In this document: positions 61,091 to 64,000 of the stretch, piece after piece
Position numbering within the stretch: position 1 is the stretch's first letter
Layout of the letters: each line of letters opens with the position of its first letter
Assembly: GCA_964016885.1 (NCBI GenBank)
Contig: OZ024743.1
Location: 323,020,001-323,084,000, forward strand
Source of the DNA: Eledone cirrhosa
Taxonomy: Eukaryota
DNA: 64,000 nucleotides
Reading direction: 5' to 3'
Translations under genes and position numbers: made by a program
Notes under the pieces: generated by a model
What the model was told of the DNA's origin: nothing
What the model saw: only the letters and a program-made list of their open reading frames with translations
Database searches by the model: none

Positions 61091-64000
61091 ATATGTGAAT
61101 ATAGACATAGAATATTCGAAAATATTCTGTATGTTTATAATAAACATTTTGAAGACCTAATCGCTATAGAATAGAATACGTCACGTATTACAATTAGATT
61201 CTCGATAAAAGCAAGGGAAGTAATCTACGCGTTTCATTCTTGTTAGAAATCTTCAGGACTACATATCCAGTGCTTTTATCGAGAATGACACAGCTAGAGA
61301 CTTATAGAATACTTAGCTGTGTACAGGAACTGGTTTGAAAGAGCGGTTGCCGGTCCGGCAGAAATTAGAAATTGGAATAAATGCTCTGAAATAGCGATAT
61401 ATATGTGAATATAGACATAGAATATTCGAAAATATTCTGTATGTTTATAATAAACATTTTGAAGACCTAATCGCTATAGAATAGAATACGTCACGTATTA
61501 CAATTAGATTCTCGATAAAAGCAAGGGAAGTAATCTACGCGTTTCATTCTTGTTAGAAATCTTCAGGACTACATATCCAGTGCTTTTATCGAGAATGACA
61601 CAGCTAGAGACTTATAGAATACTTAGCTGTGTACAGGAACTGGTTTGAAAGAGCGGTTGCCGGTCCGGCAGAAATTAGAAATTGGAATAAATGCTCTGAA
61701 ATAGCGATATATATGTGAATATAGACATAGAATATTCGAAAATATTCTGTATGTTTATAATAAACATTTTGAAGACCTAATCGCTATAGAATAGAATACG
61801 TCACGTATTACAATTAGATTCTCGATAAAAGCAAGGGAAGTAATCTACGCGTTTCATTCTTGTTAGAAATCTTCAGGACTACATATCCAGTGCTTTTATC
61901 GAGAATGACACAGCTAGAGACTTATAGAATACTTAGCTGTGTACAGGAACTGGTTTGAAAGAGCGGTTGCCGGTCCGGCAGAAATTAGAAATTGGAATAA
62001 ATGCTCTGAAATAGCGATATATATGTGAATATAGACAGAATATTCGAAAATATTCTGTATGTTTATAGTAAACATTTTGAAGACCTAATCGCTATAGAAT
62101 AGAATACGTCACGTATTACAATTAGATTCTCGATAAAAGCAAGGGAAGTAATCTACGCGTTTCATTCTTGTTAGAAATCTTCAGGACTACATATCCAGTG
62201 CTTTTATCGAGAATGACACAGCTAGAGACTTATAGAATACTTAGCTGTGTACAGGAACTGGTTTGAAAGAGCGGTTGCCGGTCCGGCAGAAATTAGAAAT
62301 TGGAATAAATGCTCTGAAATAGCGATATATATGTGAATATAGACATAGAATATTCGAAAATATTCTGTATGTTTATAATAAACATTTTGAAGACCTAATC
62401 GCTATAGAATAGAATACGTCACGTATTACAATTAGATTCTCGATAAAAGCAAGGGAAGTAATCTACGCGTTTCATTCTTGTTAGAAATCTTCAGGACTAC
62501 ATATCCAGTGCTTTTATCGAGAATGACACAGCTAGAGACTTATAGAATACTTAGCTGTGTACAGGAACTGGTTTGAAAGAGCGGTTGCCGGTCCGGCAGA
62601 GATTAGAAATTGGAATAAATGCTCTGAAATAGCGATATATATGTGAATATAGACATAGAATATTCGAAAATATTCTGTATGTTTATAATAAACATTTTGA
62701 AGACCTAATCGCTATAGAATAGAATACGTCACGTATTACAATTAGATTCTCGATAAAAGCAAGGGAAGTAATCTACGCGTTTCATTCTTGTTAGAAATCT
62801 TCAGGACTACATATCCAGTGCTTTTATCGAGAATGACACAGCTAGAGACTTATAGAATACTTAGCTGTGTACAGGAACTGGTTTGAAAGAGCGGTTGCCG
62901 GTCCGGCAGAAATTAGAAATTGGAATAAATGCTCTGAAATAGCGATATATATGTGAATATAGACATAGAATATTCGAAAATATTCTGTATGTTTATAATA
63001 AACATTTTGAAGACCTAATCGCTATAGAATAGAATACGTCACGTATTACAATTAGATTCTCGATAAAAGCAAGGGAAGTAATCTACGCGTTTCATTCTTG
63101 TTAGAAATCTTCAGGACTACATATCCAGTGCTTTTATCGAGAATGACACAGCTAGAGACTTATAGAATACTTAGCTGTGTACAGGAACTGGTTTGAAAGA
63201 GCGGTTGCCGGTCCGGCAGAAATTAGAAATTGGAATAAATGCTCTGAAATAGCGATATATATGTGAATATAGACAGAATATTCGAAAATATTCTGTATGT
63301 TTATAGTAAACATTTTGAAGACCTAATCGCTATAGAATAGAATACGTCACGTATTACAATTAGATTCTCGATAAAAGCAAGGGAAGTAATCTACGCGTTT
63401 CATTCTTGTTAGAAATCTTCAGGACTACATATCCAGTGCTTTTATCGAGAATGACACAGCTAGAGACTTATAGAATACTTAGCTGTGTACAGGAACTGGT
63501 TTGAAAGAGCGGTTGCCGGTCCGGCAGAAATTAGAAATTGGAATAAATGCTCTGAAATAGCGATATATATGTGAATATAGACATAGAATATTCGAAAATA
63601 TTCTGTATGTTTATAATAAACATTTTGAAGACCTAATCGCTATAGAATAGAATACGTCACGTATTACAATTAGATTCTCGATAAAAGCAAGGGAAGTAAT
63701 CTACGCGTTTCATTCTTGTTAGAAATCTTCAGGACTACATATCCAGTGCTTTTATCGAGAATGACACAGCTAGAGACTTATAGAATACTTAGCTGTGTAC
63801 AGGAACTGGTTTGAAAGAGCGGTTGCCGGTCCGGCAGAAATTAGAAATTGGAATAAATGCTCTGAAATAGCGATATATATGTGAATATAGACATAGAATA
63901 TTCGAAAATATTCTGTATGTTTATAATAAACATTTTGAAGACCTAATCGCTATAGAATAGAATACGTCACGTATTACGATTAGATTCTCGATAAAAGCAA
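61091..64000 (-). repeat. 310-bp tandem array with one hammerhead per unit (candidate non-LTR retrozyme)
   Basis: Units start at 61091, 61401, 61711, 62021, 62329, 62639, 62949, 63259, 63567 and 63877 (last truncated by window); near identical. Confidence 0.95.
61220..61262 (-). ncRNA. Type I hammerhead ribozyme, unit 1 (repeated at 61530, 61840, 62148, 62458, 62768, 63078, 63386, 63696)
   Basis: Minus: GUAGUC-CUGAAGA-UUUCU-AACA-AGAAU-GAAAC-GC-GUA|GAUUAC; catalytic core intact; predicted cleavage between 61226 and 61225. Confidence 0.88.

Follow-up and report, generated by a model that had tools for sequence, protein, structure and literature searches.

Young retrozyme arrays of Eledone cirrhosa with two inverted arms and two fixed starts, and their possible copying by Penelope-type enzymes

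This paper concerns a stretch of 64,000 nucleotides (nt) of the genome of Eledone cirrhosa (GenBank assembly GCA_964016885.1, contig OZ024743.1, positions 323,020,001 to 323,084,000 of the forward strand), which we call the window. The window ends in a tandem array of 310-bp units (99% matches between units), and each of the nine complete units within the window has a type I hammerhead ribozyme on its minus strand. An earlier note, made from the letters of this DNA alone, had placed such a hammerhead at 61198-61286; all of its coordinates check, and the motif recurs in every unit. We assign the unit to a young family of retrozymes without long terminal repeats (non-LTR retrozymes). Most insertions of the family consist of two inverted arms, and one arm starts at each of two fixed places in the unit. 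Insertions of this back-to-back form suggest that a transposon enzyme of the Penelope type works at the two ends of a DNA break and copies a single RNA there. The hammerhead itself is of the textbook canonical animal type, one per unit, and it probably has to form a double hammerhead with that of a neighboring unit in order to cleave well. Both the ribozyme anatomy and dimer cleavage have been published before, and the present family contributes one more well-supported case, with natural covariation taken from a single genome. Its insertion anatomy is of greater importance than the ribozyme.

Insertions with two arms and two fixed starts

A total of 56 loci were compared. Of these, 38 were selected for identity to the window, 16 were the first along one contig (C1) that had an intact hammerhead core, with no other requirement, and two were others. 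Nearly all of the loci sit in (TA)n. Two arms, inverted relative to each other and with the RNA 3' ends facing outward, are present at 44 of them. The outer ends lie at two places about 30 nt apart: site A, which is an AT run at unit positions 303-8, and site B at unit positions 268-283, mostly 277. In every one of the 41 two-arm loci in which both outer ends are visible, one end is at A and the other is at B (28/28 of the identity-selected loci, 11/11 of the core-selected loci and 2/2 of the others); one end is hidden in three further loci. With two sites used independently and equally often, the probability of such a result would be about 5e-13. Among the 12 one-armed loci, seven start at A, three start at B, one is irregular and one has an unseen start. 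The last is the array of the window viewed from its far end, and its start is A.

The 88 inner ends are scattered over the unit, and none of them falls at the predicted cut site. Arms extend to 16 or more units and cross the cut site many times, which excludes a linear self-cleaved monomer as the template; an uncleaved multimer is compatible with them. Microhomology of at least 2 nt occurs at 20 of 35 ungapped junctions, compared with 19% expected (eight gapped junctions and one overlap caused by the 16-bp stem described below were excluded from the count). Target duplications, of 12-16 bp, can be made out at about five loci (L023, L030, L036, L044 and L145), most sites being pure (TA)n and unreadable. 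The insertions have the marks of non-autonomous Penelope-like elements, namely an inverted 5'-truncated arm, a tail at one end and a (TA)n target.

Both arms of an insertion appear to be copied from the same sequence, in that the same variant is present in both arms at 8/8 variant loci and at 22/22 reference loci that have a full unit in each arm. This sharing would also be accounted for if a single cDNA turned and copied itself, the second fixed end being an AT run that annealed to the TA target. Site A is indeed an AT run resembling the target, and there are a few near-symmetric junctions (L055 and L048). However, neither arm is nested in the other, as folding back would predict: the A arm is longer in 16/41 loci and the B arm in 25/41, the excess being over one unit in 12 of the former and 18 of the latter, and the one-armed insertions start at either site. 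We therefore regard folding back as quite improbable.

Penelope-like elements in the same genome

The genome has many matches to the GIY-YIG endonuclease, including intact frames in which a reverse transcriptase (RT) is followed by GIY-YIG. These frames have a C-x(4)-CxxC linker before the endonuclease, and a linker of this type is a mark of the Neptune and Nematis elements (PMC8557442). One of the RT plus GIY-YIG families has at least 60 copies with 97-98% identity, most of them stop-free. The 20 loci of this family that were fetched have (TA)n targets and two fixed 3' ends, and one of each end is present in 10/10 simple two-arm loci. A second family carries a hammerhead with a U·U helix II base and a palindrome, and it has one of each end in 2/2 loci. 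Finally, two sibling retrozyme families share a 150-nt segment around sites A and B (75-82% identity), and their ends are similar.

The RT plus GIY-YIG family with at least 60 copies (L205-L224) is of the Neptune type and very young. Its unit is 4.7 kb and its tail is 68 nt, compared with 30-40 bp in PMC8557442. A hammerhead of its own was looked for in this family, and none was found.

Several results weigh against a Penelope-type mover for the retrozyme. The two ends of the young RT plus GIY-YIG family are 68 nt apart, whereas those of the retrozyme are separated by about 30 nt, and its compound locus L215 contains a unit with two short ends. No autonomous partner was recovered: a BLAST search with the unit against 69 loci returned retrozyme copies only, as did a profile of the shared segment run on 70 loci that surround matches to the endonuclease or the RT (a small share of the elements in the genome). 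A pattern for the conserved hairpin with other neighbors gave 13 matches, all of them retrozyme copies. A pattern built from a loose end gave no match.

Two other candidates were rejected. The L129 hammerhead, which lies near an open reading frame, is a separate insertion. The 3.9-kb spacing of ACUAGU matches on contig C4, which might be taken for a Penelope tandem, belongs to a 430-bp array.

The hammerhead and its genomic copies

Read 5' to 3' on the minus strand, the motif consists of a 16-nt arm, CU, GGA, UAU, GUAGUC, the core CUGAAGA, helix II with its loop, GAAA and ACGCGU, and after the cut, GAUUAC, U, UCC, CU and the second 16-nt arm (coordinates in Table 1). The core CUGANGA, GAAA and UH are all present in type I order. 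Helix I has 6 bp and is closed by the internal loop. The earlier note had carried helix I on through UAU/U, GGA/UCC and a perfect 16-bp stem; all three are there, together with a 2x2 CU/CU loop, omitted by the note, that separates GGA/UCC from the stem. The loop that it gave as AACA is not a tetraloop on helix II in an alignment with three other families, which favors a 4-bp helix whose base is a U10.1·U11.1 mismatch with three pairs above, capped by the 6-nt loop UAACAA. The column of the G10.1-C11.1 pair at the base of helix II is unpaired in 13/16 aligned sequences and is U·U in the window unit. This base is not disqualifying because it is a documented natural variant (PMC3088659, PMC7229834), and the first of these papers reports palindromic helices III as well. 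Natural variants of helix II in the genome have A-U at the base and the loops UAACGA and UAAUAA. The first two letters of the UAU/U loop are invariant in 16 sequences from four families. The alignment also shows that the loop letters, through which loop I and loop II may make a tertiary contact, are kept from family to family. N7 is U in most genomic copies and A in the core of the window.

The fold of the 89-nt motif has z = -5.4, and 0/200 shuffles were equally stable. In 2000 dinucleotide shuffles of the unit, neither a 16-bp inverted repeat (the longest was 15, once) nor a core with a paired helix I appeared. A pattern for the hammerhead core, in which the two-letter center of helix III was left free, gave 17,146 matches in the 3.0-Gb genome and three for the reversed control; 16,974 of the 17,146 have the ACGCGU center. 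The Rfam hammerhead models gave no match to the window motif at the gathering score or at E up to 10, as might be expected of a chance motif in an ordinary satellite or of an assembly artefact. However, the unit and its head-to-tail joint were found in independent public runs, and the shuffle, reversed-pattern and covariation controls refute an origin by chance or artefact, to which we give practically no credence.

The 100 core-pattern matches that were listed all belong to the retrozyme family of the window. The family is dispersed, with 16 arrays within the first 31 Mb of one contig. Among 150 matches listed, copies identical to the unit of the window occur at 38 loci, and therefore, the family is very young. 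As in other animal non-LTR retrozymes, the units are tandem, fall in the range of 150-450 bp, have one type I hammerhead each, a GC content below 50% (34% here) and no coding frame (the longest stop-to-stop frame is 59 codons), and the target duplications exceed 4 bp where the flank is informative.

The unit was also met in three sequencing runs with three other organism labels, from three other studies (X2, X3 and X6). Each run contains one closed 310-nt contig of the unit with a depth of 10-26, one or two differences from 61095-61404 and no flanks. Carry-over, close relatives or transfer may each be the source of these contigs.

Covariation and natural variants

We aligned 16 natural sequences, hand-chosen from four families of the Eledone cirrhosa genome. 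Paired positions make up 91.8% of the cells in the alignment, as opposed to 32-45% in slid controls, and 12/16 pairs are changed on both sides, with compensatory change in all three helices. In helix I, 5/6 pairs are changed on both sides and 93.8% of cells are paired. The center pair of helix III is U-A in eight sequences, G-C in five and A-U in three, and it is never broken, so that 16/16 are self-complementary. A reservation that counts against this argument is that the sequences are related, with about four independent lineages, and that the search patterns fixed the core and 4/6 palindrome letters. Therefore, the shuffle counts for covariation are not probabilities, and since the patterns themselves require the core, its constancy among the copies so found is not taken as evidence.

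The first center letter is not G in 142 core matches, and it is G followed by a letter other than C in 30. Among the 100 of the 142 that were listed, ACUAGU occurs 90 times, ACAUGU four times, ACACGU four times (single copies only) and others twice; 94 of the 100 have a palindromic hexamer. All 30 of the second group read ACGUGU. In two DNA-like runs, none of the core and palindrome letters varies at 1% of depth or more, whereas N7 and loop II do; the reference N7 letter accounts for about a fifth of the summed depth (two runs, one sample).

Two further retrozyme families deserve mention in their own right. One is a sibling family of about 320 bp (L119:381-705 minus, L175-L204, L225 and L235) with the core UUGAUAA in nearly all of the copies shown. 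In this core a U3-A8 pair, listed as a rare natural variant in PMC3088659, replaces C3-G8; close relatives keep CUGAGGA. Helix III of this family is a 12-nt palindrome. The other is a second abundant family (L155-L169, L131 and L132) with 430-470-bp units, ACUAGU as helix III and arrays of more than 40 units on C4.

Probable cleavage as a dimer

Within a single hammerhead, two helix III pairs would leave a 2-nt loop, which is forbidden, and the most that can form is one A-U pair closing CGCG, at a cost of about 5 kcal/mol in folding. The minimum-energy fold of two tandem units is a double hammerhead with -109.3 kcal/mol, compared with -100.3 to -103.4 kcal/mol for two local hairpins. In the double hammerhead, helix I is swapped between the units and ACGCGU pairs with ACGCGU, the pair probability of helix III being 0.89-0.99. 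The predicted pair probability of helix II is about 0.17 in the monomer circle and 0.73 in the dimer. If ACACGU or ACGUGU is substituted, helix III drops to 0 and helix II to 0.02-0.10. The earlier note had proposed that adjacent units pair through ACGCGU, and both the predicted fold and the compensatory change across families support this. Its dimer inference was right in kind but already published: the canonical metazoan hammerhead, with a helix I of 6 bp, a helix II of 4 bp and, as helix III, 1-2 bp closed by a palindromic loop, is described as active in tandem repeats, where it forms a dimer, and as idle when the RNA is a monomer circle (PMC4209133).

It could be argued that the hammerhead works as a monomer, in which the long helix I and a contact between loop I and loop II hold the core, one A-U pair suffices and the palindrome adds little. 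The center would then be a free loop, yet it remains self-complementary through changes to GC, UA and AU, other hammerheads in the fetched loci are also palindromic (AUGCAU, AGUACU and ACGU), and the predicted gain in helix II is lost without the palindrome. We consider it unlikely that the monomer is sufficient, although a number of observations favor it and weigh against dependence on the dimer. Helix II is weak. A local hairpin of -31 kcal/mol is predicted to form once a single unit has been transcribed, and the direct-path barrier from hairpin to swapped dimer was computed to be about 28 kcal/mol (an upper bound, with branch migration left out), so that the hairpin may kinetically trap the monomer fold. 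The earlier note had held that the palindrome and the long bulged helix I both suit dimer cleavage; the folding bears this out for the palindrome, and the long stem, which would form the local hairpin first, is not obviously suited to it. ACGUGU, for which the model gives no full helix III, has been amplified in two arrays (L174 on contig C5, and contig C151). In sibling families, helix III is either stable enough for the monomer or an odd-length near-palindrome. In Xenopus, 8/9 predicted retrozyme dimers were uncleaved in vitro (bioRxiv 10.64898/2026.07.22.740005). Coral and mussel retrozymes cleave as monomers, and 6% and 22% of axolotl monomers were cleaved in an hour; however, the axolotl dimers of both families cleaved much more (PMC7229834). 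On balance, double hammerheads of neighboring units remain the probable route to efficient cleavage.

A proposed cycle

The observations would be connected by the following cycle. Read-through transcription of an array would give a multimer RNA in which neighboring hammerheads swap helix I, pair ACGCGU with ACGCGU and are each cut after GUA. The long helix I would then clamp both ends of the 310-nt monomer while a host ligase closes the circle. This clamping role of the stem is proposed because helix I and the long stem are predicted to be paired with a probability near 1 in the monomer circle, with helix III open. All of the related families that were folded carry long helix I extensions of unrelated sequence. 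Lacking a partner palindrome, the monomer circle would stay uncut. At a TA tract, an RT/endonuclease like that of Penelope would make one nick in each strand, with about 12-16 nt between the nicks, and both nicked ends would prime on one RNA, at sites A and B. Copying would run several times round the circle, and the two cDNAs would join by microhomology to form two inverted arms. We judge the chances to be evenly balanced that Penelope-type enzymes prime obligately in this twin fashion, with one fixed RNA site per strand, and that a partner-dependent uncut circle of 310 nt is rolled from both ends into two inverted arrays. If this reading is true, one mechanism would account for the tail of Penelope elements, for the inverted copies and for the tandem form that animal retrozymes take.

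Part of this cycle could be dispensed with if the ribozyme were a passenger, either because the RT copies uncleaved linear multimers or because short copies grow by unequal exchange, neither of which needs a circle or cleavage. For example, the only Penelope-like element tested in vitro used mainly unprocessed RNA, and cleavage was unnecessary for insertion (PMC11167929). That no inner end lies at the cut site is expected of an uncleaved multimer no less than of a circle, and a 2026 preprint (bioRxiv 10.64898/2026.07.22.740005) proposes local amplification by unequal crossover. The arrays themselves contain signs of such growth, which weigh against the rolling of a circle as the only source of tandem units. 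Duplication or conversion after insertion also occurs, because five arrays, including that of the window, have periodic private variants and one later unit of the array of the window carries the other N7 letter, the one in the majority in the genome. This array (window 61087-64000 and L025) is a mosaic, in which a 2-bp deletion and a substitution are common to units 3 and 7, a period of four. However, most arrays are uniform, with one variant in both arms and few periodic differences. Furthermore, the compensatory changes and the core kept across families show selection on the ribozyme, and the core and palindrome letters stay below 1% variation in the two runs noted above. A passenger role is, in our opinion, an unlikely explanation, about on a par with the monomer.

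The locus and its features

The array of the window runs over its right edge and ends at about 65475, for a total of 14.2 units. It is one-armed, and only the site-A arm is present. The features of the locus are listed in Table 1.

Table 1. Features of the retrozyme array and its surroundings in the window.
Feature	Position	Strand	Basis and remarks
Retrozyme array, 310-bp non-coding units	61087..64000	- (RNA sense minus)	One-armed; tandem-repeat and composition analysis
First of the nine complete hammerheads (type I, extended helix I)	61198..61286	-	Sequence and folding
16-bp perfect stem, 5' arm	61271..61286	-	Sequence, folding, shuffles
16-bp perfect stem, 3' arm	61198..61213	-	Sequence, folding, shuffles
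GGA (61268-61266) and UAU (61265-61263) side of the UAU/U internal loop	61263..61268	-	GGA pairs with UCC 61218-61216; partner U 61219
Helix I proximal strand GUAGUC	61257..61262	-	Pairs with GAUUAC 61225-61220; covariation
Catalytic core CUGAAGA	61250..61256	-	N7 = 61252
Helix II and 6-nt loop UAACAA (loop 61245-61240)	61236..61249	-	Four-family alignment
GAAA (61235-61232) and helix III hexamer ACGCGU (61232-61227)	61227..61235	-	Sequence, folding, covariation
Predicted self-cleavage site after GUA (61226/61225)	61225..61226	-	Hammerhead numbering; unit position 131/132
Array outer end at site A, fused to host (TA)n	61087..61096	+	AT run, unit 303-310; probable cDNA start
Site B (unit 277) with the 26-34 nt that separate it from A	61371..61404	+	Matches the Penelope 'tail' (PMC8557442, PMC11167929)
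Segment common to two sibling retrozyme families, 75-82% identity	61324..61477	+	Spans both sites; candidate enzyme-recognition region
Small GC hairpin inside the shared segment	61348-61360	+	Within 61324..61477
(TA)n microsatellite, insertion target	60653..61094	.	Sequence, repeat analysis

Other parts of the window also contain features of interest. Immediately to the left of the array, between two TA tracts, lies a purine-rich, G-rich stretch (60290-60652). A 46-49-bp minisatellite at 22015-22530 recurs at 16558, 18444, 26458 and 31231. Positions 605-650 (+) have a hammerhead-core-like motif that belongs to a repeat family also present in L120 and that adjoins a short TA run. Another hammerhead family is represented at 21660-21722 (+) by a truncated copy beside a TA tract, with a 4-bp helix III and an 8-nt loop; elsewhere, this family forms short two-arm insertions whose ends are about 65-70 nt apart.

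Comparison with known systems

The hammerhead of the window resembles the canonical metazoan one in its 6-bp helix I, 4-bp helix II, intact core and folding as a double hammerhead in tandem repeats. It differs in having U·U, a known rare variant, in place of G-C, a GUA cut triplet and an added 16-bp stem, and in the lack of an Rfam match. Like the animal non-LTR retrozymes of PMC7229834, the family consists of short non-coding tandem units in thousands of copies with long target duplications. Of the two axolotl ribozymes described there, HHR_Amex1 has a 1-bp palindromic helix III, HHR_Amex2 has U·U at the base of helix II, and each of them is cleaved better in dimeric form; the family of the window combines both weak features in one ribozyme. 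Inverted two-arm, two-start insertions in (TA)n are not described in the available main text of PMC7229834, its supplement aside. The cave-cricket element pDo500 (PMC2837043) is likewise a tandem-repeat hammerhead with compensatory changes, an extended stem and models for single and double hammerheads. However, another topology was proposed for its double hammerhead, with helix III within one sequence, and the available text treats it as satellite DNA, without insertion anatomy.

PMC7229834, PMC7761336 and the 2026 preprint do not settle what moves animal retrozymes or if a circle is the template, and PMC8557442 names the formation of tandem and inverted copies by Penelope-like elements as an open task. 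The latter paper describes an inverted copy together with a tail of 30-40 bp, present at just one end, and the tail has since been traced to two internal start sites, with a dimeric enzyme predicted (PMC11167929). The retrozyme has in common with the Neptune-type elements the (TA)n targets, the 5'-truncated inverted copy, the one-end tail and the two internal RT starts. Unlike them, it codes for no protein, its arms consist of many short units and it keeps strictly to one start per arm; in the in vitro system of PMC11167929, no strand difference in start site was seen. No description of the one-start-per-arm rule was found in the literature, most subscription papers and some supplements being outside the search. 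The Penelope-like elements that were fetched have no sequence match to the retrozyme.

In L1 twin priming, both target strands prime on one RNA and the inversion is joined by microhomology. The second L1 primer anneals at variable internal places. In the retrozyme, by contrast, each of the two starts has a fixed place, and reading of the template continues over many lengths of the unit. In conclusion, the one-start-per-arm rule is a testable clue to how Penelope-type enzymes insert their copies, and because the family is very young, comprises thousands of nearly identical units and follows the rule strictly, such questions can be tested with a short RNA template.

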